Below the pieces are notes generated by a model. The model ran no database searches. It was not told the DNA's origin and saw only the letters and a program-made list of their open reading frames with translations. A stretch of 64,000 nt of DNA from an uncultured bacterium (GTDB taxonomy: Bacteria > Patescibacteriota > Saccharimonadia > UBA4664 > SCTI01): assembly GCA_963721685.1 (NCBI GenBank), contig CAVRJJ010000001.1:212170-276169 (forward strand), written 5' to 3'. Shown in pieces: positions 1 through 49,636 of the stretch; positions within the stretch are counted from its first letter, which is position 1; each line of letters opens with the position of its first letter. The translations under genes were made by a program, and so were the position numbers.

Positions 1-290
1 GCATTCACCGATACCGACTTGCACGAACATTTAAAGGATCGTGAGATCAAAACCATTATTGTGGTAGGCGGCTATGGTTCTACTTGTGTACTTGCGACGG
101 CACTTATGGGTCAGATGTTTATGGTTATAACGTCTTCGTGCCAAAAGACTTGACCGCTGATTTAGACTCTGCTGATCCACGGGAAGATCCCTCGTCTCTG
201 TCCGGGAGTATTGAAGGCATTTGGATTAGTTTTTGGTTATACCCCGGAGTCTCCTGCAATTGCAAATACTTGGAAGGAAGCCGCTTCTAA
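1..290 (+). pseudogene. 3' fragment of an isochorismatase/cysteine-hydrolase-family gene (5' end outside window); frame switches from frame 1 (1..153) to frame 3 (84..290) at a GGG run near 108-112
   Basis: Frame-1 translation ...HLKDREIKTIIVVGGYGSTCVLATA fits the isochorismatase-like core (I.TLVV.G.....CV..TA). The downstream GY.V.V..D..A motif (SDVYGYNVFVPKDLTA) lies in the other frame. One extra G would join them. Confidence 0.3.
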
Positions 291-318
291 AATGTAGGTT
301 TAATTCTCGGTATAGGCG

Positions 319-348
319 TTTGCATTTATCGTCCTAATATGATATTAT
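319..348 (+). promoter_or_regulatory. sigma70-type promoter with extended -10 (TTTGCA/TTGCAT at 319..325, TGaTATTAT at 340..348) upstream of high-GC ORF 391..909
   Basis: Spacer of 17-18 nt. The TGn extended -10 is directly visible. A GGGAGAG RBS follows, 7 nt before the ATG. Confidence 0.4.
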
Positions 349-390
349 ATCGAAATCCGTTAACCACCCTCGTTCCTTAGGGAGAGTGCC

Positions 391-909
391 ATGCCCAATC
401 GACCCGAACGCCTCTGGATGTTGATGGACGTCACCGAACTGCCGCCTACGGCGGATCTGCCGACCTCGGACGCCGAGACCCGCTTCTTCAAGGGCGACAT
501 CGATGACCTGATGGCCTCTACTGGCTGGCTCACCGAGGATGACCTCATGGTCTTCCTTGAGAGCTACGACCAGCAGACTGGTCTCGACAACGAGACCGTC
601 GCGGCCAAGATGTTCAAGGCGTTCATGCGGTTCAACGACCGCGCAGCGACGCACAGTCCCGGCATGTCGTATGAGTTCCGCGAAGTCGTCGAAGACGAGC
701 GGGTTGCTCGGGGTCTGTCCGCAAGCCCGCGCTACGTGACAACCCGGCTGACCGTCAACACCGAGACCGAGTCGATCGCACGCGCGAGCGTCATCGACCT
801 CAGTCTCCAGCTCTCGGCAGTGGCCTGCTGGGTGCCGGACGGCAAGGCCGAGTACGCCAGGATCCTCCGCGACTGGGCGATCAGCCTCGAAGAGAAGGCT
901 GCCGTCTAG
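391..909 (+). CDS. hypothetical protein; foreign-composition (about 63% GC, very high GC3) ORF, cassette 1
   Basis: 172-aa ORF with a strong third-position G/C bias (ccc aat cga ccc gaa cgc ctc ...), unlike the flanking AT-rich host DNA. It has its own promoter, RBS and terminator hairpins. I recognise no protein family. Confidence 0.6.
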   Translation: MPNRPERLWMLMDVTELPPTADLPTSDAETRFFKGDIDDLMASTGWLTEDDLMVFLESYDQQTGLDNETVAAKMFKAFMRFNDRAATHSPGMSYEFREVVEDERVARGLSASPRYVTTRLTVNTETESIARASVIDLSLQLSAVACWVPDGKAEYARILRDWAISLEEKAAV

Positions 910-923
910 GCACATCACGTTCG

Positions 924-985
924 GACAGGCTCTCAGCATACCGGAGAGCCTGTCACAGCCCCGCGAGGCAGAGCCCTGCGGGGCT
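924..985 (+). terminator. two consecutive GC-rich hairpins (GACAGGCTCTC-loop-GAGAGCCTGTC at 924..954; AGCCCCGC-loop-GCGGGGCT at 957..985) 3' of ORF 391..909
   Basis: Perfect 11-bp and 8-bp inverted repeats are seen directly. No clear U-tract follows, so they may act as a terminator or an RNA-stability element. Confidence 0.4.
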
Positions 986-1005
986 AAATCATGCCATGGG
1001 CGTAT

Positions 1006-1047
1006 ACATAATTTGTTCGGATAACGTCCCATAGCCCCAGCCATACA
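1006..1047. repeat. conserved 42-bp junction motif ACATAATTTGTTCGGATAACGTCCCATAGCCCCAGCCATACA (copy 1)
   Basis: Near-identical copy at 3951..3992 (ACATAAATTGTTCGGATAACGTCCCATAACCCCAGCCATATA), 39/42 nt identical. Both lie immediately 3' of a high-GC cassette hairpin. Confidence 0.8.
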
Positions 1048-1144
1048 TTTTACATCTGTTAATATTTTTAGGGTAAGTGGGATTGCACAACTCTTTTACG
1101 ATTTCTAGTGAATATTTGTCTGGCCTACAGGTTATACTACATTA

Positions 1145-3235
1145 ATGATTCATAATAAATGGTTTCGCATATTGCTCCCATCAATACTTATAATTCTATG
1201 GCTGGGCTTAGGCTCGGCCGGTGGCCCTATCTTTGGCAAAATTTCTGAAGTCTCAACAAATGATCAAGCTGCATTCCTACCTGCTTCTGCAGAATCTACA
1301 CAGGTGCAGAAACTGCAAAGTAAATTCAATAATGGTCAGGCAATACCTGCAATCGTCATATTTGAATTTGATGAGCAGATAAATCCTGCTGAACTCCCAA
1401 CTTTTAATGCGCTTGGTGAAAAACTGAAAGTAGATGGCATTCAGCAAGTTATAGGTCCAATTCCATCAGATGATTTGATGGCGCTTGAATATATTGCCCC
1501 AGTGTCTAATGATAGCGTACTAAAAACAGTCATTAATGATTTACGCCAAGCTGCTGATAATAATTCACCAGACGGCGCAAAGACATTTGTTACAGGACCA
1601 GCAGGCTTAAGTGCGGACTTGTCTAAAGCATTTGAAGGTATCGACGGAATTTTGTTGGTAGTTGCCTTAGGTGCCGTGTTTATAATCTTGCTACTGGTAT
1701 ATCGTTCATTACTATTGCCTTTTCTCGTTTTGATCAATGCAATGCTCGCACTGTGTGCTGCAATCATTACGGTTTATTTGTTAGCCAAATACAACTTGAT
1801 TGAGCTAAATGGTCAAAGTCAGGGTATATTATCGATTCTCGTAATTGGTGCCGCTACTGATTACTCACTACTGCTTGTGTCCCGCTATAAGGAAGCGTTG
1901 AGCCGCACTAATGATAAATGGGAAACTATCGCATTTGGTATAAAAAGCTCGTTTGAACCGATTCTAGCATCAGCCGCAACAGTTGTTCTAGCACTACTTT
2001 GTCTATTGTTCTCGGATTTAAATTCAAACAAAAGTCTCGGCCCGATTGCTGCCACAGGGATAGCATTCTCGCTATTGGCAACACTCACATTCTTACCTGC
2101 TCTTCTTGCTACTTTTGGCAAAACAGCATTTTGGCCGAGTAAAATTGCCCAACCGGAGAATAAAAAGGCGGTAGCAATCAAGACAGGCCGTGAAGAACTT
2201 TCGGGTATTTGGAACAGGGTTGGAGGTTTAATAACAACTAATGCTCGTACTACATGGATCGTAATAACCGTACTACTGACGATGGCATCGCTCGGCCTCT
2301 TACAGCTAAGGGCTAGCGGAGTACCCCAGTCAGAATTAATTTTGTCACAATCAAACGCAGCCGATGGCCAAAAAGCAATCGCCCGTCACTTCGATGCCGG
2401 ATCTGGCGCCCCGGTAATTATTGCTAGCTCGCAAGCGTCTCAAAAGGGAGTAGTTAATATTCTTGAAACAAATGATAAATTAGCGATGCTCACGGCCTAC
2501 AGCGATCGTGGTCAAACTAATAACCTCAATGAGGCAAAAGTGATCGAAGGCAAAGTATTACTGAGTGCTACATTAAAAGAAGACCCGTACTCGGAGCAGG
2601 CCAGGTCGACTATTTTGTCGCTAAGAGATGAATTGAACCAAGTCGCTAGTGCTCAAGTTGGAGGTACTACTGCTATTGCAGCCGACACGAGCATTACCGC
2701 ACAACGTGATCTGAAATTAGTCGTACCATTAGTACTGCTCGTCATCTTTATAGTTTTAGCACTGCTGCTTCGGGCATTGCTTGCGCCTCTTATTTTGATT
2801 ATGACTGTAGTACTGAGTTTCGCCGCAACATTGGGCGTTTCTGCACTCATATTCAATAATATTTTAGAATTTCCGGGCGCTGACGCAACGGTACCTCTTT
2901 TCGGTTTTGTATTCTTGGTTGCATTAGGTGTAGATTACAATATTTTCTTAGTATCTCGTATAAGAGAGGAGACTTTTAAGTACGGTACACGTGCAGCGAC
3001 GCTCCATAGCTTAGGCAAAACTGGTGGAGTCATAACATCTGCAGGAGTAGTACTGGCCGCGACATTTGCCGCTCTTGGGATTATCCCGATTCTCTTTCTG
3101 GCGCAAATAGCATTTATAGTAGCCTTTGGCGTATTACTAGATACGGTTATCGTTCGGTCATTATTAGTACCGGCCTTATTTACAGATTTGGGCTCAAAAG
3201 TATGGTGGCCATCAATAATTTCTAAAGAAAAATAA
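1145..3235 (+). CDS. MMPL-family (RND superfamily) membrane transporter
   Basis: 696 aa, two blocks of about 6 TM helices separated by soluble domains, a typical MMPL layout. The gene is about 40% GC, lower than the rest of the window. Confidence 0.8.
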   Translation: MIHNKWFRILLPSILIILWLGLGSAGGPIFGKISEVSTNDQAAFLPASAESTQVQKLQSKFNNGQAIPAIVIFEFDEQINPAELPTFNALGEKLKVDGIQQVIGPIPSDDLMALEYIAPVSNDSVLKTVINDLRQAADNNSPDGAKTFVTGPAGLSADLSKAFEGIDGILLVVALGAVFIILLLVYRSLLLPFLVLINAMLALCAAIITVYLLAKYNLIELNGQSQGILSILVIGAATDYSLLLVSRYKEALSRTNDKWETIAFGIKSSFEPILASAATVVLALLCLLFSDLNSNKSLGPIAATGIAFSLLATLTFLPALLATFGKTAFWPSKIAQPENKKAVAIKTGREELSGIWNRVGGLITTNARTTWIVITVLLTMASLGLLQLRASGVPQSELILSQSNAADGQKAIARHFDAGSGAPVIIASSQASQKGVVNILETNDKLAMLTAYSDRGQTNNLNEAKVIEGKVLLSATLKEDPYSEQARSTILSLRDELNQVASAQVGGTTAIAADTSITAQRDLKLVVPLVLLVIFIVLALLLRALLAPLILIMTVVLSFAATLGVSALIFNNILEFPGADATVPLFGFVFLVALGVDYNIFLVSRIREETFKYGTRAATLHSLGKTGGVITSAGVVLAATFAALGIIPILFLAQIAFIVAFGVLLDTVIVRSLLVPALFTDLGSKVWWPSIISKEK

Positions 3236-3311
3236 ACACATAAGCTTAAAGTTTTATTGACTGAAATTAACAAATTCGGTTCTAACATCGTCTATGATAC
3301 TCAGCCAAGTA

Positions 3312-3340
3312 TTGACAGACCAATTGGCTTATGGTATTAT
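3312..3340 (+). promoter_or_regulatory. consensus sigma70-type promoter TTGACA(3312..3317)-N17-TGgTATTAT(3332..3340) upstream of high-GC ORF 3478..3864
   Basis: Perfect -35, 17-nt spacer and extended -10. The -10 overlaps the motif TATTATATATCGATCCG, which resembles TATTATATCGAAATCCG at 343..359. Confidence 0.45.
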
Positions 3341-3477
3341 ATATCGATCCGCCGCATGCAGTACTTATGTTGCTTGCGATAGCGGGGCTCATATTGAAGG
3401 TTAATGATATTGAGTGGTAGCAGTACTTCGGAAGGACCGCGGCGGAAACCGCAAACAACAACCGAAGGGAGTCCACC

Positions 3478-3864
3478 ATGGACACCAAGACCACGAAGAT
3501 CAGCAGCATCACAGGCGGGCGCAGTGCGACCGAAGAGACCACGAACATCACCGGGGTCATCATGGAGCACAGCGTTTCGGACGTGACGTTCAAGGACGTC
3601 ATCGGCCGGAGCATGCCCGACTGGCTAAACAAGCACGGCAAGGTGACGGTGACCGTTCGCGAGAACGGCGACCACAACCTCGTTGTGCTTGAGCTGGAAC
3701 TGACAGACATCAGGCTGTTGACGGAAGACGGCTGGAACAACTCCTTCAGCTATCGCGCGATTGTGCGCGGTGGCCCAAGGGACCGTATCGGCCAAACCGT
3801 CGACGGCAAGATCATCATGCAGTCAGCCGGAGGAACGTCCTTCGGCAACCTGCACGCGGCCTAG
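3478..3864 (+). CDS. hypothetical protein; foreign-composition high-GC/high-GC3 ORF, cassette 2
   Basis: 128-aa ORF with almost every codon ending in G/C, and AGGGAG-like RBS (GAAGGGAG) 8 nt upstream. No family recognised. Confidence 0.6.
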   Translation: MDTKTTKISSITGGRSATEETTNITGVIMEHSVSDVTFKDVIGRSMPDWLNKHGKVTVTVRENGDHNLVVLELELTDIRLLTEDGWNNSFSYRAIVRGGPRDRIGQTVDGKIIMQSAGGTSFGNLHAA

Positions 3865-3913
3865 CCGCAACCGCCCCCGGTTAGGGGATGAGCTCCGCAC
3901 CTACAAGATGAAG

Positions 3914-3948
3914 GAGACGTCCCCGGCAACGGGGGCGTCTCTCTTTCT
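3914..3948 (+). terminator. rho-independent-like terminator: GAGACGTCCCCG-GCAA-CGGGGGCGTCTC followed by TCTTTCT
   Basis: 12-bp stem with one mismatch and a GNRA-like loop, followed by a T-rich tract. Confidence 0.5.
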
Positions 3949-3950
3949 AC

Positions 3951-3992
3951 ACATAAATTGTTCGGATAACGTCCCATAACCCCAGCCATATA
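3951..3992. repeat. conserved 42-bp junction motif (copy 2)
   Basis: See 1006..1047. Confidence 0.8.
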
Positions 3993-4131
3993 GTTTTTGC
4001 TCAATATACATATTAAAATTTTCTTTCCCTCGCCTAAGGCATAACCGCTATTTTCTGTTGTTATGCTCGCTCCGGTTGGCTAAGCATATGCACTATACTG
4101 AACAAGTATCAAAATTTAAGGGAGAGTATAT

Positions 4132-5070
4132 ATGCATAGATTTATAGCAAAGCTAGCAACCACAGGAATAATAGTAGGGGCGCTGGCAGCACCAGCCATG
4201 GCCGCTAACTCAACAGTTGTTGTGACGCCTGCCAACTTGCAAGGATGGGCGCTCAACCGTGATGCCTCAACCTCGACACCGTATGAGTTTACCGAAGCAA
4301 AAGCCAGCATCGGCAACGGCAGTGTTTATGTGAAGCCAATCGGTGGTACCGTTGCGAAAGATAAGTTTATTGCTGAAAAGACATTAGGTTCACTCGCTTC
4401 AGAATTAAATTCTGTTGCATATGACTTTCTGATTGCCGGAAATGGAACAACCGCTAGTGCCAATCATTTTTACCTAAATGTGTACACCAATCTACCCGGA
4501 TCATCTACGTTCTATGATTGCCGATTTGATTACGTACCAACAGCAGGATCGACCTCTGCGTTCACTACCGCATCCTTCACGTCAACTTCAGCCGCGACAG
4601 CCGTAGGTGACCGAGCAGAAGATGGTTTTACCTGTCCTACTACTTGGGGCGCCATGCAGGCAGGAAGCACCATTAAGTTCATTGCGGTAAATGTGGGCGA
4701 CACCTCCCTGAGCGATGCAGGATTGGCTGGTTACCTAGACAAGGCCGTTATCAACTCAGGCGGTAACGTGACTACTTATGATTTCGAGCTAAGGAATGTC
4801 CCAACTAATGCTAACCAGTGTAAGAATGGCGGCTTCGCTAGCCTCACCAACAATAATGGTGTAGTTTTCAAAAACCAGGGCCAGTGCGTACAGTTCGTAA
4901 ACTCAAACCGATGGAGTAACTTCAATATTGTTTCGGTATTCAATACCGTAGTTCAGAAGGCAACATCGGGGAATGCCAACTCGTCATCCAACACTGTTGG
5001 CGGCAGCGCTACGAGCGGCAATGTTTCAAATACCAATAGCACCACAACAACTGTTAAAATCAAAAACTAA
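4132..5070 (+). CDS. secreted Ser/Thr/Asn-rich protein of unknown function with N-terminal signal peptide
   Basis: N-terminus MHRFIAKLATTGIIVGALAAPAMA-ANS is signal-peptide-like, the RBS is GGGAGAG, and a clean terminator follows. Confidence 0.55.
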   Translation: MHRFIAKLATTGIIVGALAAPAMAANSTVVVTPANLQGWALNRDASTSTPYEFTEAKASIGNGSVYVKPIGGTVAKDKFIAEKTLGSLASELNSVAYDFLIAGNGTTASANHFYLNVYTNLPGSSTFYDCRFDYVPTAGSTSAFTTASFTSTSAATAVGDRAEDGFTCPTTWGAMQAGSTIKFIAVNVGDTSLSDAGLAGYLDKAVINSGGNVTTYDFELRNVPTNANQCKNGGFASLTNNNGVVFKNQGQCVQFVNSNRWSNFNIVSVFNTVVQKATSGNANSSSNTVGGSATSGNVSNTNSTTTTVKIKN

Positions 5071-5092
5071 CCACCCAAAACTTAAATAAAAG

Positions 5093-5118
5093 AAAAAGCC
5101 GGCATTGGTCGGCTTTTT
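5093..5118 (+). terminator. rho-independent terminator AAAAAGCCG-gcattggt-CGGCTTTTT
   Basis: Perfect 9-bp stem including an A-tract and U-tract, so it may act in both directions. Confidence 0.7.
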
Positions 5119-5188
5119 CGCTGTCAATATAATTATCATTTAAACTAGAACGCCTCGCCGGAGCGAGGGCTCTAGCGAGACGTGGGGA

Positions 5189-5677
5189 TCAGATGACCCC
5201 GACGAGTTCTTCGAGTTCATCAAGGGAGAGGGAGAGGCGGCCGATGAAGTCGTCCCCCTCAACGATGTACTGCGCGCAGAGGCACCTCAGCCAATTGCTG
5301 TGGCGAGTATTACCTCTCTTGAGCTCATCAATCCACTGCTCGGCCCTGGCGGCTTCGCGCCAAAGCCAGAACTCCCTGATCTCATGGTGGTAGGAACCGA
5401 TCTCCTCGGGCCTAATGCCGTAACCGAGCTTTCTGGCGTCAGAAAGACGCGAGAGCTCGGGATGGATTGTCCGCCCGTAAAGGACGAAGGCGTGTGGTTC
5501 CAGGTTGCCCTGACGGCACTCGGCCAACGCCTTCCTGGCTTCAGCCTTGGCCTCCTGCATCAGCTCAGTGTCTTCGATCTTGGGAACCTCGTAGGTGAGG
5601 GCCACCGAAGCCCAGCCCGCCCCAGTCCTGGCAAGCTTTTTAAGCGCGCGAAATCGGGGGCGATTTTGCAATCCCAT
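5189..5677 (-). CDS. hypothetical protein; high-GC/high-GC3 ORF
   Basis: 162 aa. The minus-strand frame has about 75% G/C at third positions, while the overlapping plus-strand ORFs lack this bias. A CAGGAGCG RBS precedes the ATG. Confidence 0.5.
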   Translation of the reverse strand: MGLQNRPRFRALKKLARTGAGWASVALTYEVPKIEDTELMQEAKAEARKALAECRQGNLEPHAFVLYGRTIHPELSRLSDARKLGYGIRPEEIGSYHHEIREFWLWREAARAEQWIDELKRGNTRHSNWLRCLCAQYIVEGDDFIGRLSLSLDELEELVGVI

Positions 5678-5802
5678 AGGTGTACGCTCCTGGTAGACGA
5701 TTGATGATCACTACAGAGTTTATTTATTAAAGCATAAAGTGAACAATAAGTCCAGTTTGTACATGATAGCAAGTATCAGCGTCAAGGCCTATACTCACTT
5801 AT

Positions 5803-6333
5803 ATGAAGAAGCCACTCATCGCCATACTTGCCGTAGGGATCATTGCTACTGGGGCTTACATTATGATAAGCACCAACGGCCCGCAGCCGGCTAAAGACCC
5901 TAAACCGGCGGTGGTTAAGACGCCGGTAGCTCCGGCGGCGCCGAAGGAAGTAACCATCCGCGCGGCGTTTATGATATTTACCAATGGAACCATTAGAATC
6001 TTTACCGATCCGAAGTACCATAGCCGCTCAGCCGATGTTTTTATCACGCCCGAAACACCTAATGTCTTGCTGGTAAAAAAGGCAGGCATAACCTGGCAGC
6101 AGTTTTTTGATACGCTGCCGGCCCCCATGAAAGTCAGCCAAGACTGTTTAATGACCGGTACCGGCCAGAGCTTCTGCAATGGAAGCGCTGGGACCCTGAG
6201 ATTTTACTTAAATGGCACAAAAGTTGACGATTTGCTAACACGGGAAATCAAGAGCGCCGACAAAGCCTTAATTAGTTACGGGCCAAATGAAGCCCAGCTT
6301 TCGGGACAGCTGCAAGCAATTCCGAATCCATAA
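5803..6333 (+). CDS. membrane-anchored/secreted hypothetical protein
   Basis: N-terminal hydrophobic segment followed by a Pro/Ala/Lys-rich linker. Confidence 0.45.
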   Translation: MKKPLIAILAVGIIATGAYIMISTNGPQPAKDPKPAVVKTPVAPAAPKEVTIRAAFMIFTNGTIRIFTDPKYHSRSADVFITPETPNVLLVKKAGITWQQFFDTLPAPMKVSQDCLMTGTGQSFCNGSAGTLRFYLNGTKVDDLLTREIKSADKALISYGPNEAQLSGQLQAIPNP

Positions 6334-6418
6334 GGGTTTAAATAGCCCGCTATATCTTCTGCATATTGACGAAAATGGTAGAGAAGCATAAGCTTTACGC
6401 AGGAGGAAACAGTTCCTA

Positions 6419-7009
6419 ATGGCTCATGTACTTATCAAACACACCCTGCTGATTGGCGCACTTTCCTTAACGGTTGTTGGCAGCGCTTTGGCCGAACCTA
6501 ATATTAAGGCCCAGGAAGCCCGCAACAGCCAGGTTGCCGCGCAAGATGCGGGGGAAGTTAAGCGCGCGGAAGCTAAACTTAAGTCCGCTGACGCCAAACT
6601 AAAAGCTTGTCAGAAGCGTGAAGCTACTATTAATAAGAAAATGCTGCAAATTGTGGCCCGCGGCGAGAGGCAAATAGCAATCTTTACCCAAATTGCCGAC
6701 CGCACCCAGGCTTTTTACACCGCAAAAGGCAAAACGCTTAGTAATTATGCTGAACTGGTTGCTGAGGTGGAAAATAGGAAAAATCGGGCGCAGTCGGCTT
6801 TGGATCAGATGAAGTCTCACAGCGGGACGTTTATCTGCGATGCAACCGACCCAAAGGCGGTGACCCTCCATTTTAAAGAAAGCTTAAAGCGCGAAATTGA
6901 AGCCTTAAAACTGTATAAGACAGCGGTTAAGAATTTAATTGTCGGTGTCAAAAGCGTGCAGGGAAGTACCGCTTCAACCGAGGGTACGTCTAGCGGGGCA
7001 AGGCCATGA
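6419..7009 (+). CDS. secreted coiled-coil protein, unknown function
   Basis: Signal peptide ending ..SALA-EP, an AGGAGG RBS, a Lys/Ala/Glu-rich heptad-like sequence, and a 4-nt ATGA overlap with the next gene. Confidence 0.5.
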   Translation: MAHVLIKHTLLIGALSLTVVGSALAEPNIKAQEARNSQVAAQDAGEVKRAEAKLKSADAKLKACQKREATINKKMLQIVARGERQIAIFTQIADRTQAFYTAKGKTLSNYAELVAEVENRKNRAQSALDQMKSHSGTFICDATDPKAVTLHFKESLKREIEALKLYKTAVKNLIVGVKSVQGSTASTEGTSSGARP

Positions 7010-7290
7010 AACTGCGCAAAGTTCAATCCGGGTTTGCCGGGCTTGAAATAATCTTGGTTGTGGTGGCCGTTGCCTTTATTGGGTACGTTGCCTACCAGGT
7101 ATACGACGCCAATCAAGCCGAGAATGCAATGGTAAACGAGAAAGCCAAGACAGCCGAGGAAAACATCATCGCTCCAAGCATTAATTCAACGAATGATCTA
7201 ACCACGGCTGAGCAGACATTGGATCATATTGATCCTGAGGCCATCAATACCGATAGCGCTGAGCTTGATAACGAGTTAGCTGCTTTTTAG
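7006..7290 (+). CDS. type IV pilin/pseudopilin-like protein (class III signal peptide)
   Basis: N-terminus ...QSG/FAGLEIILVVVAVAFIG fits the prepilin motif, with G-F at the cleavage site, E at +5 and a hydrophobic helix. Confidence 0.5.
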   Translation: MKLRKVQSGFAGLEIILVVVAVAFIGYVAYQVYDANQAENAMVNEKAKTAEENIIAPSINSTNDLTTAEQTLDHIDPEAINTDSAELDNELAAF

Positions 7291-7485
7291 CTTACGCTCC
7301 AAAGAATAATCTATCCTATTCTGCTAAAATAGTGGTTCTAACCAGGGGGAAGCAGGATGATGAGATACTGGCGGCTGTTCTTAATCTTTAAGGTTGTTAA
7401 GTGGTTATTGCGCCTGCGGAAGCGAGCCTAAATTACCCGCACACAGACGTTTGGCGCGAGTTTTTCTTCCCGCTACGCCCAGCAT

Positions 7486-8328
7486 TTGGGGGTGGATCCG
7501 CAAGCTTGCCTGATTGCCGCCTTAGACGATCTGGGCATCCGCCGCTTCCGTCTTATGGGGCCGTGGGATCTGATAGAGCCAAAACCAGGGAAATACGATT
7601 TTAAGGACCTCGATTGGCAAATGCAGCACGTTGCTAAACGGGGCGGGGAGGTCAGCTTAACCTTAGGGTTGCGCCAGCCGCACCATCCGGAGTGCCACCT
7701 GCCCCAGTGGGCACGCGAGCTGGCACATGATGCGTGGGAAGCGGCGCTGCTGGCGTTTATCAAAGTTGTTGTCAATCGTTATAAAGATAATAAAACGGTC
7801 GTTAGCTGGCAGCTGGAGAATGAAGCGTTAAACGATGATTTTGGCCAGTGTGTAGATTTCGATAAAGAGCGGTTGGAGAGGGAGCTGCAACTCGTCAAGC
7901 AACTGGATGATAGGCCGGTGATTATGAGCTTAAAGAACCATTGGAGTTGGTCGGCGCCCGGGCCGGTGCCAGACATCTATGCTACTTCGATTTATTTGCG
8001 AATTCACCACAAGGGAAAACTGCGGAACCACATTATACCGCCGTGGTATCAACGGCTGCGTGCCCAGTACTTTCAATTGCGATATAAGCGGCCGTTCTTT
8101 ATTCATGAACTCCAAGCCGAACCATGGTGCCCACGGGGAACCCAGCACGCACCAATTAAAGAGCAAGATTTGTCTATGAACCCCAAGCAGTTCCGCTATG
8201 CAATCTCCTATGCACTTCGCACTGGTATTACGCCTATCGATCTCTGGGGACTGGAATGGTGGTATTACCGTAAAATGTTGTTTGATGATCCGGCGATGTG
8301 GAAAGAGGCGCGGAAGGTGTTTAAGTAA
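7486..8328 (+). CDS. glycoside-hydrolase-like TIM-barrel protein (GH5/GH35/GH42-like), TTG start or 5'-truncated
   Basis: The WQLENE segment resembles the NEP catalytic-acid motif of GH clans. The frame is open from 7432 with no ATG before the TTG at 7486. Confidence 0.4.
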   Translation: MGVDPQACLIAALDDLGIRRFRLMGPWDLIEPKPGKYDFKDLDWQMQHVAKRGGEVSLTLGLRQPHHPECHLPQWARELAHDAWEAALLAFIKVVVNRYKDNKTVVSWQLENEALNDDFGQCVDFDKERLERELQLVKQLDDRPVIMSLKNHWSWSAPGPVPDIYATSIYLRIHHKGKLRNHIIPPWYQRLRAQYFQLRYKRPFFIHELQAEPWCPRGTQHAPIKEQDLSMNPKQFRYAISYALRTGITPIDLWGLEWWYYRKMLFDDPAMWKEARKVFK

Positions 8329-22319: not shown

Positions 22320-22748
22320 ATGCCAGTACCAGCGACATCGCCGCTACGGCTCGTCACCGCGAGCCATCCTGCCGTACCAGCCGAACGGCCGCGTCTCAGA
22401 GCTGTACCTGATGCAACCGATGTGACGGCTTTCGATCTCGAGGAGCTCGACCTTGAAGGGGCGGAAGTCGCCTTCGCCGAGATCTACCGCGCATACCTGC
22501 TGTACTTCGGTCCCACCGACGCCAGCCAGCGTCTCGAAGACCTCCGCTTGGAGTTCAGCCTCGGGTTCACGCCCCTGGACGATCTTCTCGAGCAGAACCG
22601 GGCCCTCATCGACGGCCTGAGTCAGGGCATGGGCAACCAGCTCACGGCAGGCTCCAAGTGCAATCCGCTCATGACGCCGGGATCCACATTCCTCAGCGCA
22701 CCGCGGAGCACGGGACGTCGCGACGAGCTCGAGCCGCTCATCGCCTGA
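22320..22748 (+). CDS. hypothetical protein; foreign-composition high-GC ORF (cassette 3)
   Basis: 142 aa, acidic and Leu/Asp/Glu-rich, with strong GC3 bias. No family recognised. Confidence 0.5.
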   Translation: MPVPATSPLRLVTASHPAVPAERPRLRAVPDATDVTAFDLEELDLEGAEVAFAEIYRAYLLYFGPTDASQRLEDLRLEFSLGFTPLDDLLEQNRALIDGLSQGMGNQLTAGSKCNPLMTPGSTFLSAPRSTGRRDELEPLIA

Positions 22749-35318: not shown

Positions 35319-36116
35319 ATGATACTATTAAATATAGTGGCTATGGTTAAACCAATCTATTTTCGAGGAATTAAAATTGCTTTTTTTGCAGTTATCGCGC
35401 TCCTGTGCGTGGTGTTATTTTTTTTCGGGGCCAACGAACTACGGCCGAAAAACTCCTTTATCCAATCGGCCCAGGCAATTGCGGACTTAAAAAGGGCGAC
35501 TGGAGAATTGAGAATATTACTGCAAGACACCTCAAGTGGTTCCGACCAAATTGCCCGCAAGTATATATTTTATTTGGACCGGATGGAGCAGTCCTGCCAA
35601 CACGTTGCCGTTGCTACTAACGGCCCTGACTTTGCCAGCCTTACATCCGCCGAAATAGGTAGCATGAAGCAAAGCCTGGCCCTATGTAATGATCTGGTAA
35701 TGCTGGTTGCCGCGTCAAAAAAGCAATATGATACGCTGCAACCGCTCTTAACTGCCGATGCCAGCCCCCCGCGGTACCAAACCTTGCCCCCCTTCAAAAA
35801 CCAGATGAAACAACATCATACTAAGGTAGTTGAATCGGCACTTAAGCAGCTTTCTCCAGCATCATCAGACAAAACTGCATTTCCTTCTACCGCTGCAAGC
35901 GAGCTCAAGCAGCTTCGGACGTCTGTCAAGAACAGCCCTGGACTTAGCTACTTGCCAAATTTGGAAGCGTTTCAACTGAAAATGGCCGGGGAGCGCCAAC
36001 ACTATTGGTCGGCTTATGCCGACATTGATTCGCTTGAGCATAGCCTTACGACACAATTATCAAGATATTGCAGCGCTAATGAGGTAAAAAAGAGACTCTC
36101 TTACCAATGCCACTAA
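35319..36116 (+). CDS. membrane-anchored hypothetical protein
   Basis: Single N-terminal TM helix, otherwise a helical soluble domain. Confidence 0.4.
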   Translation: MILLNIVAMVKPIYFRGIKIAFFAVIALLCVVLFFFGANELRPKNSFIQSAQAIADLKRATGELRILLQDTSSGSDQIARKYIFYLDRMEQSCQHVAVATNGPDFASLTSAEIGSMKQSLALCNDLVMLVAASKKQYDTLQPLLTADASPPRYQTLPPFKNQMKQHHTKVVESALKQLSPASSDKTAFPSTAASELKQLRTSVKNSPGLSYLPNLEAFQLKMAGERQHYWSAYADIDSLEHSLTTQLSRYCSANEVKKRLSYQCH

Positions 36117-36126
36117 CCGACGCCGG

Positions 36127-39100
36127 TTACTTATTCCAGAAAAAGCGTTTAGATCCGCCGCAGAACGCCGCCCCATGGCGCAAACGTTTTTCTAAAGTGG
36201 GTACCGTACAGCGGGTAATTTCTGGCCAGGCATTATAAGTAGTGAGTAAAGTTCCGCTGGATTTTACCACGCGCAAGCAGTAGGTACTTTCATAGGTTGC
36301 CTTTGATAGGTCTAAGTCAAAATCCCAGCGCCCATACTCACCTGCGGCAATCGCCTGTGTATTCGTAAAATAGTTGTTGGTAATGTAATTCTGCGGTCGT
36401 ATCGTTGCGCCCCCTTGAGTTGGGTCACTGCCGCTTGAAACCAAACCACCGTAATTATCGGCAGGCTGGCCCCCCCAATTAACCGGTGGGCTCATGGTCA
36501 TGACGCGGTTGCCGGTGCCTGTGGCGGCAACCGCCACGAACACTCCGTTGTTGTAAGTGACGGAGTACCAATCGTTATCCTCGACGCTGGGGCGGATGGT
36601 CCAGGTAATGCCGTCGGGGCTGGTCATCACGCGGTTGTCGGAGCCGGTGTAGCTGACCGCCACAAACAACCCGTTGCCGTGAGTGACGGAGTACCAATCG
36701 TTATCCGCCGCGCTGGTGCGGGGGGTCCAGGTAATGCCGTTAGGGGAGGTCATGACACGGTTGCCGGTACCGGAGGCGGCAACTGCCACAAATAACCCGT
36801 TGCCGTGAGTGACAGATTGCCAAATATTATTAGCTGCGCTGGTGCGGATGGTCCAGGTAATGCCGTCGGGGGAAGTCATGACCCGGTTGCCGGAGCCGGT
36901 GTAGCTGACCGCCACAAATAACCCGTTGCCGTAAGTGACGGAGTACCAATCGTTATCCGCCGCGCTGGTGCGGGGGGTCCAGGTGGTGCCGTCGGGGGAA
37001 GTCATCACCCGGTTGCCGGTACCAGAACTTGCGACCGCTACAAACAAGCCATTGCCGTAGGTGACGGAGTACCAGAGGTTATCCGCGGCGCTGGTGCGGA
37101 TCGTCCAGCTAATGCCGTCGGGGGAAGTCATCACCCGGTTGCCGGTACCGGTGGCGGCAACTGCCACAAATAACCCGTTGCCGTAAGTGACGGAGTACCA
37201 ATCGTTATCCGCCGCGCTGGTGCGTGGGGTCCAAGTGATGCCGTCGAGAGAGGTCATGACGCGGTTACCGATACCAGAACTTGCGACCGCTACAAACAGG
37301 CCATTGCCGTAAGTGACGGAGTTCCAGGAATTGTCCGCGGCGCTGGTGCGGCTTACCCAACCGGCAATACCAACATCATGATAGGTCTCACTATTAGAGC
37401 ACACGCTACCGCTGCGAGCTGCATAATGCAATGCAAAATTACTATCACCAGGGTCGGCATCTCCTGTGGTAGCACCGAGATTCATGCGCAGCCGTAACGA
37501 ATCGCTACTTGCCGCAGTCGTAACGGCGTCTTGTGATGACAGCGCTTCACCCACAGCGGCGTCGACCCCCGGAGCAGTCATAACTCGGTTGCCGGTGCCG
37601 GATGCTGCCACTGCTACAAACAAGCCGTTGTTATAAGTTACGGCCTGCCATAAGTTGTCTGCCGCGGAGGTTTGGGAGGTCCAGGTAATACCATCAGGTG
37701 AAGTCATCACCCGGTTGCCGGTCCCTGATTGCGCTACCGCTACAAACAACCCGTTGCCGTAAGTGATGGACTGCCAGGATTGATCAGCACTGGTGCGGGG
37801 GGTCCAGGTGGTACCATCGGGGCTGGTCATCACCCGGTTACCGATACCAGAACTTGCGACCGCTACAAACAACCCGTTGCCGTATGTAACGGAATTCCAA
37901 GTATTATCCGCGGCGCTGGTACGGGAGGTCCAGGCAGTGCCGTTGAGGGAGGTCATCACCCGGTTGCCGGTGCCGGTTTCCGCCACCGCTACAAACAACC
38001 CGTTGCCATAAGTGACGGATTTCCAATCAATGTTAGCGGCGGCAGTGCGGGGTGTCCAAGTGATGCCGTCGGGGGAGGTCATCACCCGGTCATTAATGGT
38101 TCCGGTAACACTTGGACTTACCGCTACATACAGACCATTTCCATAAGCGATACCGCTCCATGCATTGTCAGCGGCACTGGTGCGGGGGTCCAGGTGATCC
38201 CGTCGGGAGAGGTCATAACCCGGTTGCCGGTCCCGGTAGAACCCACCGCTACAAACAACCCGTTGCCGTAAGTAACAGAGTTCCAATAATTATCGGCGGC
38301 ACTGGTGCGGGGGGTCCAGGTAATGCCGTTAGGAGAGGTCATAACCCGGTTGCCGGTCCCGGTAGAGCTTACCGCTACAAACAGATCTTTGCCATATGTT
38401 ACGGATCGCCAATCATTATTTGCCGCTGAAGTGCGGGAGATCCAGTTACTGGCGGTTGACTGCGTGGTAGTGCCCGAGGTCATTACTCGATTACCGGTAC
38501 CGCTATTTGAGACTGCCACAAACAAACCATTTCCGTAAACGACACCAAACCAAGCATTGTCTGCCGCGGAGGTTCGGGAGGTCCAGGTGATACCATCAGG
38601 TGAAGTCATGACCCGGTTTCCGGTGCCGCTGTTTCCTACAGATACAAATAGACCGCTAGCGAAAGTAACTGACCGCCACAAGTTGTCTGCTGAGCTGGTC
38701 CTTGATGTCCAGGTAATACCATCAGGTGAAGTCATGACGCGATTGCCGGTACCAGTGGTGGCCACTGCCACGAACAAACCGTTACCGAAGGTAATTGAAG
38801 TCCAGTTATTGTCTGCCGCGGAAGTTCGGGATGTCCAGGTGATGCCGTCGGGGGAGGTCATGACGCGGTCACCGGTACCGGAAGCTGCCACTGCCACGAA
38901 CAAGCCATTGTCGTAGGCGACTGATTGCCAACTATTATTAGCTGCACTAGTGCGGATAGTCCATGTGATACCATCAGGTGAAGTCATGACCCGGTTGCCG
39001 GTACCAGAGGTGGCTACTGCCACAAACAAGCCGTTGCCGTAAGTAACGGAGTTCCAGTTGTTATCCGCCGCGGAAGTTCGGGGAGTCCAGGTGGTACCAT

Positions 39101-40141
39101 CAGGTGAAGTCATGACCCGGTTGCCGGTACCAGAGGTGGCTACTGCCACAAACAAGCCGTTGCCGTAAGTAACGGAGTTCCAGTTGTTATCCGCCGCGGA
39201 AGTTCGGGAGTCCAGGTGGTACCATCAGGTGAAGTCATGACCCGGTTGCCGGTACCAGAGGTGGCTACTGCCACAAACAAGCCGTTGCCGTAAGTAACGG
39301 AGTTCCAGTTGTTATCCGCCGCGGGGGTATTGCGTGAAATCCAGTTAACCCCAGCAGTTCTTTCCTCTTGACCAAACCAACGATGTGAAGCTTGTGTATA
39401 ATCGGCGTTTTGAGAATATGTCACTGCCGCATAAACTGAGGCAATTCGAACATCATCATCTTGGGCAGATGGCCCCCCAGAACCCAGCCGATTGCGGGTT
39501 ATTTGAACTTGCATGCTGTCAAGATCGCTTTGAGTCCAGGTGCCGTTGAAGGTTACAGCCGAACACCACGCCCAGGTGTTGAAGGCTGGTGTACAGGTAC
39601 CTGCAGTCTGTAACGTTCCATTTATACGTAAATTTATACTTAAAGAATCTAGTGTACTACCATTGGCATTGGTAGCACTTTGGGCATGCACATTTATGCT
39701 GACCTGAGACACTGATAGTACATTAGAGGCATTGGTTAAACCGAATTCCTCCACCTCACCTCCGGATCCCGCGGTACCTGTGCCTATATAATCGGCCGTA
39801 TTGGCAGTTGCTCCTTCATCCACATGATCACAATGAGGTCCGCCAGAACACGTAGAATCGTTAGTGCCAACCACATTGGGCCAATCAGACGTAATGTCAA
39901 AGCTTGGAACAATATTGCTAGTGGCGGCGTAAACGGGAGTTTGGAACATCACAATTGTTCCCGCCAGCAAAGACAAAATAAATACAATTGCGGGTACTTT
40001 ACTCCGAGAGAGCTTGGCTAACTTGAAGCTTGGTGGTGTTCGCTTTCGTGTTGACCTTAGCCGCCTCAATATTGGCAATAGCACATTGCGTTGCTTTTTC
40101 CTTTGATGCTTTGGGGCACTGTTTTGGATGGGAATTATCAT
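36127..40141 (-). CDS. giant BNR/Asp-box repeat surface protein (about 1338 aa if corrected), currently split into three ORFs by two 1-nt frameshifts in G-runs (about 38185 and about 39207)
   Basis: At least 30 tandem 40-aa units of VMTSPDG(I/T)TWTPRTSAADN.W.SVTYGNGLFVAVA..GTGNR containing the S-x-D-x-G-x-T-W Asp-box. An N-terminal signal anchor is present. Confidence 0.7.
38970..39330. repeat. three near-identical 120-bp tandem copies (one 40-aa BNR unit each); the middle copy differs only by one G fewer in a G-run
   Basis: Identity at the DNA level, seen by direct comparison of 38971..39090, 39091..39209 and 39210..39325. Confidence 0.8.
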
Positions 40142-43100
40142 TAGTTTGTGTACTGGTAACTTATTTCACCAATTCGGACCTTGTTGCTGGACTTCGAAAT
40201 TACCCGCACAGTGATGGTGATTAGGTCGTTGGCGGCATAGGTACAACCACTGAGCGTTACGCTCTGCTCGGTCCAAGTAGCCGCCGTGCCAGGCAGAACC
40301 GATACCGAGCTAGCGCATGCGGTCCCGGCGCCATCCTTAACGGTTACCAGAATATCGTTATTTGCCGTTGAGGTTGAATCGCCATAGGCCCAAATTTTAA
40401 AGGTACCAAATCCCGACGCGTACTCGCTGGGAATCTGATTTCTTACAATAACGTCGTAATCATTGAGAGTCCCGGTGCTATTGAGCCATTCATAATAGTT
40501 ATGAATATTGGTGCCATCGTAATTGGAGGTAATAGAGCCGCTATTATTACTGCCATCGGCTGAAAGTATGCCTCCCGGATATTCAGGGACAATATAGTTC
40601 TTACGCGTCGAGCCGCCTCCTCCGCCGCCACATGATCCAAAGGCGAGGGTACCGGGCGTGGCACTATTTTTCAAACACTCGTTAGCGGCACCCGCGGTAG
40701 TGGGTAAAACTAAATTGTAGCTTGTCGAGGTCGTACCTACGCTTATCGTGACGGTGTTGGCGTTAGCTGAGTTATAAACCACCAGCTTGCCAGTTAGGGC
40801 AGATGCCTTGCCAAAAAGCACTTGGTTTGCCGAGGTATCTACGCCCAGCACCGTATTACCTGCTGTGTTTTGAACCTGAAGTGCAGCCGCTGAATTAGCC
40901 TGGAACTTTACTAAGCCGCTTGAAGACACGTCACCTGCTATGTGAGCGCTCCCACCAACATTTAGGCCACCCTGGATGCTCACACCGCCACCTATGGCAG
41001 CGTTGCCGATGGTAGTCAAAGTGCCAGATTCTATGCCGCCTGCTTCCAGCTGTTGCACGTAAGCTCCGCCGATATCGTAGATAGTCATATTGCTTGAATT
41101 GTAGTTTGCCACGTAAGCGTAGCGGCCTTGGACGTAAACTGAAGTTGGTGCGTCGCCAGTGGCAACCGTTCCAGTTAATACTGGGCTGGACGGGTTTGAG
41201 ACATCAAAGATGTTCATGGAATCCCCAAGGTAGTTTGCCACATAGGCGAACCGATCCTGGACGTAAACTGAAGTTGGTGCGTCGCCAGTGGCAACCGTTC
41301 CAGTTAATACTGGGCTGGACGGGTTTGAGACATCAAAGATGTTCATGGAATCCCCTACGTAGTTAACCACATAAGCATAGCGGCCCTGAACGTAAACTGA
41401 GTATGGATTACTGTCTGTGGCAATAGTGCCGATCTGTGTTGGACTGGCCGGGTTGGAAACGTCATATATATCTAGGTCATCCCAAAAATAGTTCGCAACA
41501 TAGGCATAGCGGCCTTGGACGAAGATTGAGTACCCCCCACTGGTGCTTGCGAATGTTCCAGCAAGAACTGGACTGGACGGGTTAGCTATGTCGTAGATAG
41601 TCATGGAGTCGGAATTATAGTTTGCTACATAGGCATAGCGGCCTTGTACGTACACTGAGGCTGGTGCGTCGCCCGTCGAGACTGTTCCGGCCAATACAGG
41701 CGTGGACGGGTTTGAGACGTCATAGATGGTCATGGAGTCTCCAAGGTAGTTTGCCACATAAGCATAGCGGCCCTGGACGTACACTGAACCTGGTCCGTCG
41801 CCAGTGGCAATAGTCCCGACTTGTGTCGGACTAGAGGGGTTTGAAACATCAAAGATTGTCATTGAATCCGCGCCGTAGTTTGCAACATATGAATAACGTC
41901 CCTGGACGTAAACTGAGTATGGGTTAGTTCCAGTGGAAATCGTCCCTGTAGTGCTAGAAGGAATTTGCCCGGAGACATATAGTTGTCCGGCGGAAGTACC
42001 AATAGCTCCTACCTGGACCCGCATATTGGTTGTGTCTACATTGAAAACATTGGTTCCGCTAGTGGCGTTCTGTATCTTAAAGGCAGAGGTGGAATCAGTT
42101 TGGTTGCGTAAGGTGGTCGCCCCCCCATCAGCGATCTTAAACACATCTTGGGCGGTAGCGGTGGTATCTCGGATTGTAAGTAAGTTGCCACTACCGGCGC
42201 TTTCAATCCTGAGTCCTTCAACCGCTCCGGTAGCAAGCTGTTCAACCTTAAGGACAGCTCCCGAGGAGACCCCGCCGCTTGCGGGGTTTTGGAAGATCAA
42301 GTTACCGTCAATGGCTGTTAAGGCGAGGGTGGCATCGGCACTGTCAACATCCGCGGCATAAGCCTGCTGAAGAGTGGAACCTCCTCCAGCACCACACCCA
42401 AGATCAGTGGTATTACACAAGGTCTTGTACGTCGGGGTTCCCGCAACATCTTCCACGACCATGAACTTCCCGGTTTGGGAGTTGTAAATGAGGCCGCCGT
42501 TGACCGCGGTGGGCAAGTTGGCAGTATTTGAAGAATCAACTACGAATAAGGTGGTGTCAGTGCCGGTGGAGGCGGTGGCGTTACCGACGATAAGCCGGTT
42601 ATTGGTGGTGTCGGCGGTAAAGAGGGTGTCGGCATTACTGCGTTGGATTTTAAAGGCAGTGATTGAGTTAGCAGTATTTTCAAACAATACATCACCTGTG
42701 CCGCTCATGGTGAGGATGGGCCTGGTAAACGTAAAGGTAGTACCGGCGGCAAGGTTAGTTGTGAATGACGCCGACACAGTCAGCGTGGTGTCATTTGTTA
42801 TGACGGCTACGCGGCGAGCTTCGCCGCCGGCAAAAATGGTGTCTCCTACCCTTAGCTGAGTAGTAAACACAGTACTTACGTTACCGGTAACAGTGGTGCC
42901 AGAACTACTAATTGTGCCTGTACCGGCCACGGCTGAGTTCTGAACCTGGAAACGGTTCTGGACATCAGCGAGCAAGCCAATACCAACGCCGCCTGTAGTG
43001 GTACTGGCGCTCAAAACATTCGCCCCTGTAGATGTTTGAACCTGGAAGGCGGAGGTTGAGTTGGTAGTGGTTCTATGCGTGGTGGCACCACCATTACCTA

Positions 43101-45327: not shown

Positions 45328-45477
45328 ACTAGCTTTTTACTCCTTTGTGTTTGCTCACACCAAACTGCAGCTAACTACAGTGAGATGTAGCTTAAAGTAT
45401 AGTGCTTATGCTTAAGCATTACAAGGCGGTTATGCTTATTTTAGTGTTGGGTTTTTAATATAAAAAACGACTATTTG

Positions 45478-49549: not shown

Positions 49550-49636
49550 TGGTACCGCTGGTCGGGCTCGAACCGACACGCTATTGCTAGCACGGGATTT
49601 TGAGTCCCGCGTGTCTACCAATTCCACCACAGCGGC
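49550..49636 (-). tRNA. tRNA-Leu (anticodon CAA), type II with long variable arm
   Basis: The reverse complement GCCGCTG-TG-GTGGAATTGGTAGACAC-G-CGGGA-CTCAAAA-TCCCG-TGCTAGCAATAGCGTG-TCGGTTCGAGCCCGA-CCAGCGGT-A-CCA folds as a cloverleaf. It has a GTTCGAGC T-loop and an encoded CCA. Confidence 0.85.

Follow-up and report, generated by a model that had tools for sequence, protein, structure and literature searches.

Within 64,000 nt of DNA from an uncultured bacterium (GTDB lineage Patescibacteriota; Saccharimonadia; UBA4664; SCTI01; contig CAVRJJ010000001.1 of GenBank assembly GCA_963721685.1, positions 212,170–276,169; hereafter the window), three copies of a short repeat, R1, R2, and R3, alternate with three small modules of foreign-looking composition. 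The locus consists, in order, of an orphan gene (cassette 1), R1, a gene for a transporter of the MMPL/RND type, R2, a second orphan gene (cassette 2), and R3, and the three repeats share one orientation. Judged by its sequence, the repeat is a partial tRNA-Gln 3' end, comprising the T-loop, the 3' strand of the acceptor stem, the discriminator base, CCA, and a few trailer bases, with a 5-nt insertion. We consider it probable that the repeats are scars of the attachment (att) type, left as an array when DNA was inserted repeatedly, by site-specific integration, into the 3' end of a tRNA-Gln gene.

The initial annotation of this DNA had described the MMPL gene as bracketed by two cassettes that end in the same 42-bp motif. 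As written, the motif is 40 nt long, and its pattern has two exact matches in the window (positions 1006–1045 and 3951–3990, both on the plus strand) and none in 100 shuffles. The two cores are identical at 38 of 40 positions. The repeat around them extends to 49 nt with 90 per cent identity (family D11; R1 at 1003–1051 and R3 at 3948–3996, both on the plus strand), beyond which the flanks of the two copies cannot be aligned. The observation itself is confirmed.

A third copy, R2, was overlooked in the initial annotation, as was the tRNA-Gln origin of the motif. R2 (3278–3310, plus strand) is a diverged family member of the form GGTTC-N21-GCCAAGT, assigned with moderate confidence, and is located between the stop codon of the MMPL gene and the -35 box of cassette 2. 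It was detected by a family profile built without it (nhmmer; E = 1.6e-3). When the window was searched with a profile made from other genomes only, the three highest-ranking matches were R3 (E = 1.4e-6), R1 (E = 2.1e-6), and R2 (E = 1.1e-3), and the fourth-ranked match had an E-value of 0.09. R2 is also the best match in the window (E = 0.011) to a profile of seed-free tail copies alone, and it keeps the exact 21-nt spacing between GTTC and GCCA. These three are the only copies of the family in the window, and all lie inside 3 kb.

Several further resemblances were noted around the repeats. The octamer ACACATAA, part of the 5' extension of R1 and R3 (3949–3956 in R3), recurs at 3236–3243, where it directly adjoins the end of the MMPL gene and precedes R2 by 32 nt. 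Extending the R2 homology to include ACACATAA gave no significant alignment (p = 0.04 and 0.32). On the minus strand at 1190–1212, within the first 25 codons of the MMPL gene, CCTAAGCCCAGCCATAGAATTAT matches the 3' half of the repeat family marginally (E = 0.04–0.12), which is probably a coincidence of coding sequence. We rejected as coding a minus-strand open reading frame (ORF) that starts in the motif (MAGxMGRYPN...), given that both differences between the copies are non-synonymous and that the long ORF runs antisense to a GC-rich gene. Resemblances to a dif/Xer site, a DnaA box, and a lac operator were dropped by eye, as there was no symmetry or convincing match.

The tRNA-Gln ancestry of the repeat is apparent from one of the three metagenome contigs in which the exact 21-mer of the motif was found (L001, L002, and L003). 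Contig L003 carries an intact Saccharimonadales tRNA-Gln(CTG) gene with the 3' end ...GGTTCGAATCCTAGCGCCCCAGCCA, after which comes TAGTACTTATGC. The window motif closes with 12 nt (GCCCCAGCCATA) that exactly match the 3' end of this tRNA-Gln plus two trailer bases, and the copy in L001 runs on into ...AGCCAAAGCACTTATGC, the tRNA trailer. In bacterial tRNA-Gln, too, CCCCAGCCA is generally the 3' end. From the T-loop to the trailer of tRNA-Gln, R1 matches at 26 of 33 aligned positions, R3 at 26 of 37, and both the L001 copy and the copy at position 622 of L003 at 28 of 37, and in none of these four comparisons did any of 2000 shuffles score equally well; R2 matches at 27 of 34 aligned positions (p = 0.008). 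Only the 3' third of the tRNA is present at the motif, and no 5' half lies upstream. A cmscan search of positions 1–8000 against Rfam, with E-values up to 10, gave no match at the motif.

The repeat differs from a tRNA in one consistent respect. Each of the pairwise tRNA alignments of R1, R3, the L001 copy, and the L003 copy at 622 requires one 5-nt gap, and the same single gap appears when the 3' half of the true tRNA is aligned with the family profile by nhmmer. In our alignment of the family (A5), the 10 non-tRNA copies all have exactly 21 nt between GTTC and GCCA, with a variable middle, whereas the corresponding distance in the real tRNA is 16 nt. A scan over spacings gave a sharp peak at N = 21, with nine occurrences against a background of about one. 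On these alignments, the 5-nt insertion defines a repeat family, GTTC-N21-GCCA-WAGCACTTAT.

In the metagenome contigs, same-orientation arrays of this family separate small accessory genes, and one such array starts from an intact tRNA-Gln. In L003, the tRNA-Gln gene occupies 205–279, and copies lie behind it at 597, 1425, and 2084, every one on the plus strand. A 19/20-identical copy of the tRNA tail and trailer lies 350 bp downstream of the tRNA-Gln gene and forms with it a direct repeat around an insert of about 330 bp that codes for a small membrane peptide. Beyond this first insert follow a hydrolase pseudogene, a YdeI/OmdA gene, and then the motif copy, which sits between divergently transcribed genes. 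Strings of tail plus trailer occur in L003 at 622 and about 1447 and in L001 at about 1990, about 1290, and 366; L001 holds four copies within 2 kb. In L002, an AadA-type (nucleotidyltransferase) gene adjoins the motif. The genes between repeats in these contigs are of accessory types: an AadA-like nucleotidyltransferase, YdeI/OmdA, an alpha/beta-hydrolase, and small peptides.

One interval of L001, about 1312–1900 (read on the minus strand), is a GC-richer segment of about 590 nt between two copies and behind a promoter-like site. It contains no ORF longer than 72 amino acids and has no Rfam match, and could be a degraded cassette or a non-coding RNA.

These copies bear directly on the alternative named in the initial annotation, a simple local duplication or gene conversion within the genome that would have no wider meaning. 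R1 and R3 share a 9-nt 5' extension, TAYACATAA, which was not seen in other genomes and makes them each other's closest relatives. However, nothing outside the 49 nt is duplicated, three unrelated metagenome contigs contain the same core, and in L003 the family is anchored at a tRNA-Gln. The copies in other genomes already contradict a purely local origin, and we give this explanation hardly any credence.

A second alternative is that the repeat is a small non-autonomous mobile element derived from tRNA-Gln and spreading between genes, similar to a short interspersed nuclear element (SINE) or a miniature inverted-repeat transposable element (MITE). In that case, the foreign modules would lie nearby by chance, or because they and the repeat prefer the same permissive intergenic spots. 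The repeat is indeed short, tRNA-derived, and present in multiple copies, its fixed GTTC-N21-GCCA architecture is unlike that of a tRNA, no integrase is linked to it, and an identical 24-nt core occurs in at least four genomes. Such an element is nevertheless unlikely: neither terminal inverted repeats nor target-site duplications were evident among the reported repeat pairs at 900–1100 or 3900–4050 or by eye, which is a limited test; the arrays run in one orientation, and one of them starts at an intact tRNA whose tail and trailer are duplicated; and the three copies in the 64 kb all lie within 3 kb, with none in a total of about 70 kb of other Saccharimonadales loci.

The second line of evidence for att-type scars comes from what the repeats separate. 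The initial annotation was correct about the order cassette 1, MMPL gene, cassette 2 (ORFs 391–909, 1145–3235, and 3478–3864, all on the plus strand) and about the lower GC content of the MMPL gene (42.7 per cent compared to 50.6 per cent in the window). Its composite accessory island was broadly right as well, although the island consists of three modules and three repeats rather than two cassettes that each end in the motif. All three modules are compositionally atypical, in different directions: the GC content at third codon positions (GC3) is 0.84 in cassette 1, 0.35 in the MMPL gene, and 0.845 in cassette 2, compared to 0.52–0.60 in housekeeping genes.

The MMPL gene (1145–3235) encodes a protein of 696 amino acids (PF03176; E = 1e-106). 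Its closest named relatives are proteins from metagenome-assembled genomes of Candidatus Saccharimonadales, and outside that group the nearest are those of Leifsonia and other Microbacteriaceae, with about 59 per cent identity. These similarities are compatible with an old gene transfer between epibionts and their actinobacterial hosts. In other Saccharimonadales (L009–L014), the orthologs have unrelated neighbors, there is no conserved synteny, and no repeats were found at these loci. In one of these genomes (L012, 1–6100), the ortholog is situated about 2 kb past an island that begins with a tRNA-Asn and includes genes of the OLD-family/UvrD (Gabija-like) and KAP-NTPase types. At the far edge of that island (6029–6063) is a marginal match to the repeat family (E = 0.05).

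Both cassette ORFs are, by their codon and substitution patterns, real plus-strand genes. Cassette 1 (391–909) encodes an orphan protein of 172 amino acids with 63 per cent GC, and cassette 2 (3478–3864) an orphan of 128 amino acids with 60 per cent GC. The GC3 values of both, together with the reading frame of the former, point to coding, and substitutions relative to their homologs (L006 for cassette 1) are biased toward third codon positions. Among 5.8 billion proteins, cassette 1 has one relative and cassette 2 has two; a profile search found nine representatives of cassette 2 among 1.84 billion proteins, which adds just a few orphans, and additional repeat-protein matches in the profile search are probably spurious. 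The cassette proteins have no match in Pfam, PHROG, or PADLOC, none by tblastn against phages, and none in IMG/VR. The only match of the cassette 2 profile in the PDB is non-significant (E = 0.29), and AlphaFold models of the cassette proteins are unreliable, with a predicted local distance difference test (pLDDT) score of 44–46.

For cassette 2, the limits of homology agree with the repeats: what it shares with loci L007 and L008 begins at the -35 box, continues through the leader, the ORF, and the terminators, and ends at the T-run, and this unit fills exactly the space from R2 to R3. The two loci have the same gene order (HisKA, cassette, DinB), and cassette 2 of the window is found at a different locus. 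Neither L007 nor L008 carries the motif, and the motif is therefore not an intrinsic part of the cassettes.

Each cassette is furnished with its own candidate expression signals. The promoter-like sites of cassette 1 (319–348, plus strand; TTTGCA-18-TATTAT with an upstream TG; 9/12 in the consensus scan, function predicted from sequence) and cassette 2 (3312–3340, plus strand; TTGACA-17-TATTAT with TG; 11/12) are the two best sigma-70-like matches in 1–6000, the latter ranking first, and the -35 and -10 positions of cassette 2 are conserved in L007 and L008. The two cassettes, whose proteins are unrelated, share a promoter/start box, TG-N-TATTAT-AT(AT)CGA(A)ATCCG (336–362 and 3329–3356), and AATCCG is present at the same place in the cassette 2 homologs of L007 and L008. 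A 5' leader of about 140 nt precedes the cassette 2 ORF (3341–3477, plus strand) and can be aligned in three genomes (about 3700–3841 in L007 and about 830–976 in L008). The leader includes CCGCCGC...GCGGCGG segments, its consensus fold is weak, with only three compensatory pairs, and it has no Rfam match; it may be a regulatory leader. The only homolog of cassette 1 (L006, 3–554, minus strand) adjoins a gene with transposase-type helix-turn-helix domains (HTH_29/32/33), and its similarity to the window begins near the ATG, which means that the promoter regions of the two copies differ.

Downstream, cassette 1 is followed by two GC-rich terminator-like hairpins (924–985, plus strand; 924–954 and 957–985; fold of 910–1055, z-score = -3.9), the first of which is conserved in L006, and cassette 2 by a GC-rich terminator hairpin with a T-rich tail (3910–3946, plus strand; fold of 3862–4000, z = -3.5), which is conserved in L007 and L008. 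These hairpins help to assess another of the three readings offered by the initial annotation, namely that the cassette transcripts carry the motif as a conserved 3' RNA element, such as a tRNA-like processing or stabilizing signal. The motif does follow two cassettes on their coding strand and does resemble a tRNA 3' end, and tRNA-like 3' processing signals are known in other systems. Yet the suggested folding of the surrounding sequence yielded only the upstream terminators, behind which the motif is located. The motif itself shows neither a stable nor a conserved fold (z about 0 on both strands; z = +0.2 on the plus strand for both copies) and no match to Rfam or to tRNA models at E-values up to 10. 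Moreover, cassette 2 homologs lack the motif, and the L003 copy lies between divergent genes. An RNA element is accordingly very unlikely.

The remaining reading, a protein-binding site, would make the conserved arm an operator or activator site for the downstream gene and its tRNA resemblance secondary. In four of five copies, the start of a plus-strand gene is found 100–150 nt downstream (the MMPL gene, the gene at 4132–5070, the YdeI-like gene of L003, and the L001 promoter), and a core of 24–28 nt is invariant among the copies found. On the other hand, the downstream genes are unrelated, the neighboring gene in L002 is convergent, and the sequence lacks dyad symmetry. Diverged members of the family retain only GTTC, the spacing, and CCAGCCA with the trailer, which are the tRNA-derived parts rather than a common operator. 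We regard a binding site as improbable. The att-like site is therefore the favored one among the three readings offered, on account of the tRNA-Gln 3' end, the arrays, and the module boundaries; no recombinase was found nearby.

Under the att-site explanation, integrative DNA would recombine with the 3' end of a tRNA gene, and the partial tRNAs would be the att-site duplications left behind. Repeated integration at one site would push older insertions outward and so produce same-orientation modules split by partial tRNAs, which is the arrangement in which R1, R2, and R3 separate GC-rich orphan cassette 1, the low-GC MMPL gene, and GC-rich orphan cassette 2 as three compositionally foreign modules. 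The junctions would have been made by a tyrosine or serine recombinase encoded elsewhere. The crossover would be located in the part formed by CCCCAGCCA and the trailer, downstream of the 5-nt insertion, so that the tRNA is kept intact, and the conserved arm TTGTTCGGATAACGTCCCATAG would represent the element-side (attP-derived) arm. Because the 5-nt insertion is present in all copies, they would be descended from the element-side site rather than from the chromosomal tRNA. The plus-strand position of all three repeats leads to the prediction of a plus-strand tRNA-Gln gene shortly upstream of the window start. At present, the R sites may be no more than inactive scars, or a recombinase may still act on them in trans.

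The repeat, its tRNA-Gln ancestry, the family, the arrays next to tRNA-Gln elsewhere, the module boundaries, and the atypical composition are directly supported. We infer activity as a recombination site from the arrangement of these sequences, with no recombinase nearby. An independent (Logan) assembly of the same sample, with contigs spanning 1007–5170 and 5141–6122, breaks at the left edge of R1 (1007) and at the terminator of a third GC-rich island (5141–5170), and has cassette 4 (described below) inside a 10.3-kb contig. The breaks fit, indirectly, a branching sequence context at the locus.

Several observations weigh against the att-site explanation. No integrase, recombinase, or transposase was identified with Pfam in about 47 ORFs of the window or in the ORFs of L001–L003. 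The modules are very small (0.3–2.9 kb) for integrase-borne elements, and neither an excision product nor an empty site was observed in the compared loci, including those examined for MMPL synteny. ARAGORN identified a single tRNA gene in the window, a tRNA-Leu at 49550, and hence no tRNA-Gln. The 5-nt insertion relative to the tRNA in all family members means that these are not direct copies of a chromosomal tRNA, and R2 is a weak member of the family (E about 1e-3). The contigs were picked by the exact 21-mer and number only three, and the conservation of the arm is therefore partly a selection effect. A 30-mer search of GTDB representative genomes returned nothing; two 18-mer matches in GTDB did not extend past the seed and are due to chance. 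There was nothing real in viral contigs, including IMG/VR (searched with the 21-mer, the tail repeat, and a 17-mer), and blastn of the motif against plasmids and phages gave no match.

In addition, the cassettes do not depend on the repeats, because cassette 2 homologs elsewhere and two further cassettes of the window have none. The latter, cassettes 3 and 4, are GC-rich orphan genes at 5189–5677 (minus strand) and 22320–22748 (plus strand), with 59 and 64 per cent GC and GC3 of 0.72–0.73. Both are preceded by a -35-like box, TTGAC(A/G), and followed by GC-rich hairpins; neither has a partial-tRNA repeat, and none of the protein libraries contains a match to them. It seems that single-gene cassettes of this kind, self-contained and of foreign composition, form a class in this genome that is independent of the repeat.

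As att-type scars, the repeats and their array are a familiar type of genomic island in an unfamiliar lineage. The closest parallel is with the tycheposon islands of Prochlorococcus, in which site-specific integrative elements have built up genomic islands anchored at tRNA genes (Hackl et al., bioRxiv 10.1101/2020.12.28.424599). There, too, partial copies of tRNA 3' ends serve as att repeats, several elements may follow one another with nothing but a partial tRNA between them, older events have left degenerate partial tRNAs, the cargo consists of accessory or niche genes, and the host has a small, streamlined genome with few classical mobile elements. In contrast to tycheposons, the present locus shows neither an integrase nor a replication module, each of its modules is a single gene of 0.3–2.9 kb, the repeat has a family-specific 5-nt insertion, the host is an epibiont of the candidate phyla radiation (CPR), and any mobility is putative. 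The target, tRNA-Gln, is also outside the seven tRNA/tmRNA targets listed for Prochlorococcus (bioRxiv 10.1101/2020.12.28.424599).

Small accessory modules flanked by short conserved sites, with no recombinase inside, are also a feature of Xer/dif modules (pdif of Acinetobacter plasmids, IMEX). Sites of the dif type are 28-bp dyads (11-6-11), often in alternating orientation, whereas inspection of the repeats described here shows them to be direct, asymmetric, and tRNA-derived.

Like this locus, integron arrays consist of single-gene modules in one orientation, and behind each module stands a short repeat of the recombination type whose ends are conserved and whose middle varies; in addition, an AadA-type gene adjoins one copy of the repeat described here. 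Unlike in integrons, no IntI, attI, or Pc was found here, the cassettes carry strong promoter-like sites of their own, and the repeats are tRNA-derived. Folding of 71 nt around each copy, on both strands, gave z-scores between -1.0 and +1.0, unlike what is expected of attC, and no RYYYAAC...GTTRRRY pair of attC cores is present in the sequence of the repeats. There is nonetheless a small chance that Saccharimonadales have a platform for capturing cassettes, with a trans-acting recombinase that inserts and shuffles self-contained single-gene modules, each with promoter, ORF, and terminator, at GTTC-N21-GCCA sites that mimic tRNA-Gln. Such a platform would, by analogy, be integron-like in function, with partial-tRNA sites replacing attC hairpins, and the modules with GC3 of about 0.84 would perhaps come from high-GC actinobacterial hosts or from the mobile elements of those hosts. 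Our literature search found no description of such arrays in Saccharibacteria or the CPR, which is weak evidence of novelty.

The rest of the window identifies it as chromosomal DNA of a soil-type Saccharibacterium, with genes for quinol oxidase subunits, an archaeal-type PEP carboxylase, MreB, GltX, glycosyltransferases, and very large repeat proteins. The proteins of the window are recorded from a contig of 405 kb. Immediately before cassette 1, positions 1–290 read as the C-terminal region of an isochorismatase-like protein split over two frames (ORFs 19–153 and 84–290), which, by eye and from the translation alone, is probably a pseudogene. Very large ORFs at 36100–45330 (minus strand), with tandem repeats of 126, 129, and 150 nt in up to 16 copies, adjoin Big_7, beta-helix, and PEGA proteins and probably encode proteins that the epibiont uses at its surface or as adhesins. 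A weak Rfam match to the proteobacterial small RNA sX11 at 7671–7784 (plus strand; 30.7 bits compared to a gathering score of 70; E = 0.009) is probably not meaningful.

Saccharibacteria (TM7) are epibionts of Actinobacteria with tiny genomes. If the sites described here are only old scars, they represent an ordinary genomic-island footprint in a new lineage. At this locus, the foreign-looking genes comprise orphans of very high GC3 and one for an MMPL exporter, the nearest relatives of which outside the group are actinobacterial. If the att-site explanation is correct, a partial tRNA-Gln hot spot would provide a searchable signature, GTTC-N21-GCCA-WAGCACTTAT, for the flexible part of the genome, and this signature could lead to the recombinase and to the source of the foreign genes.

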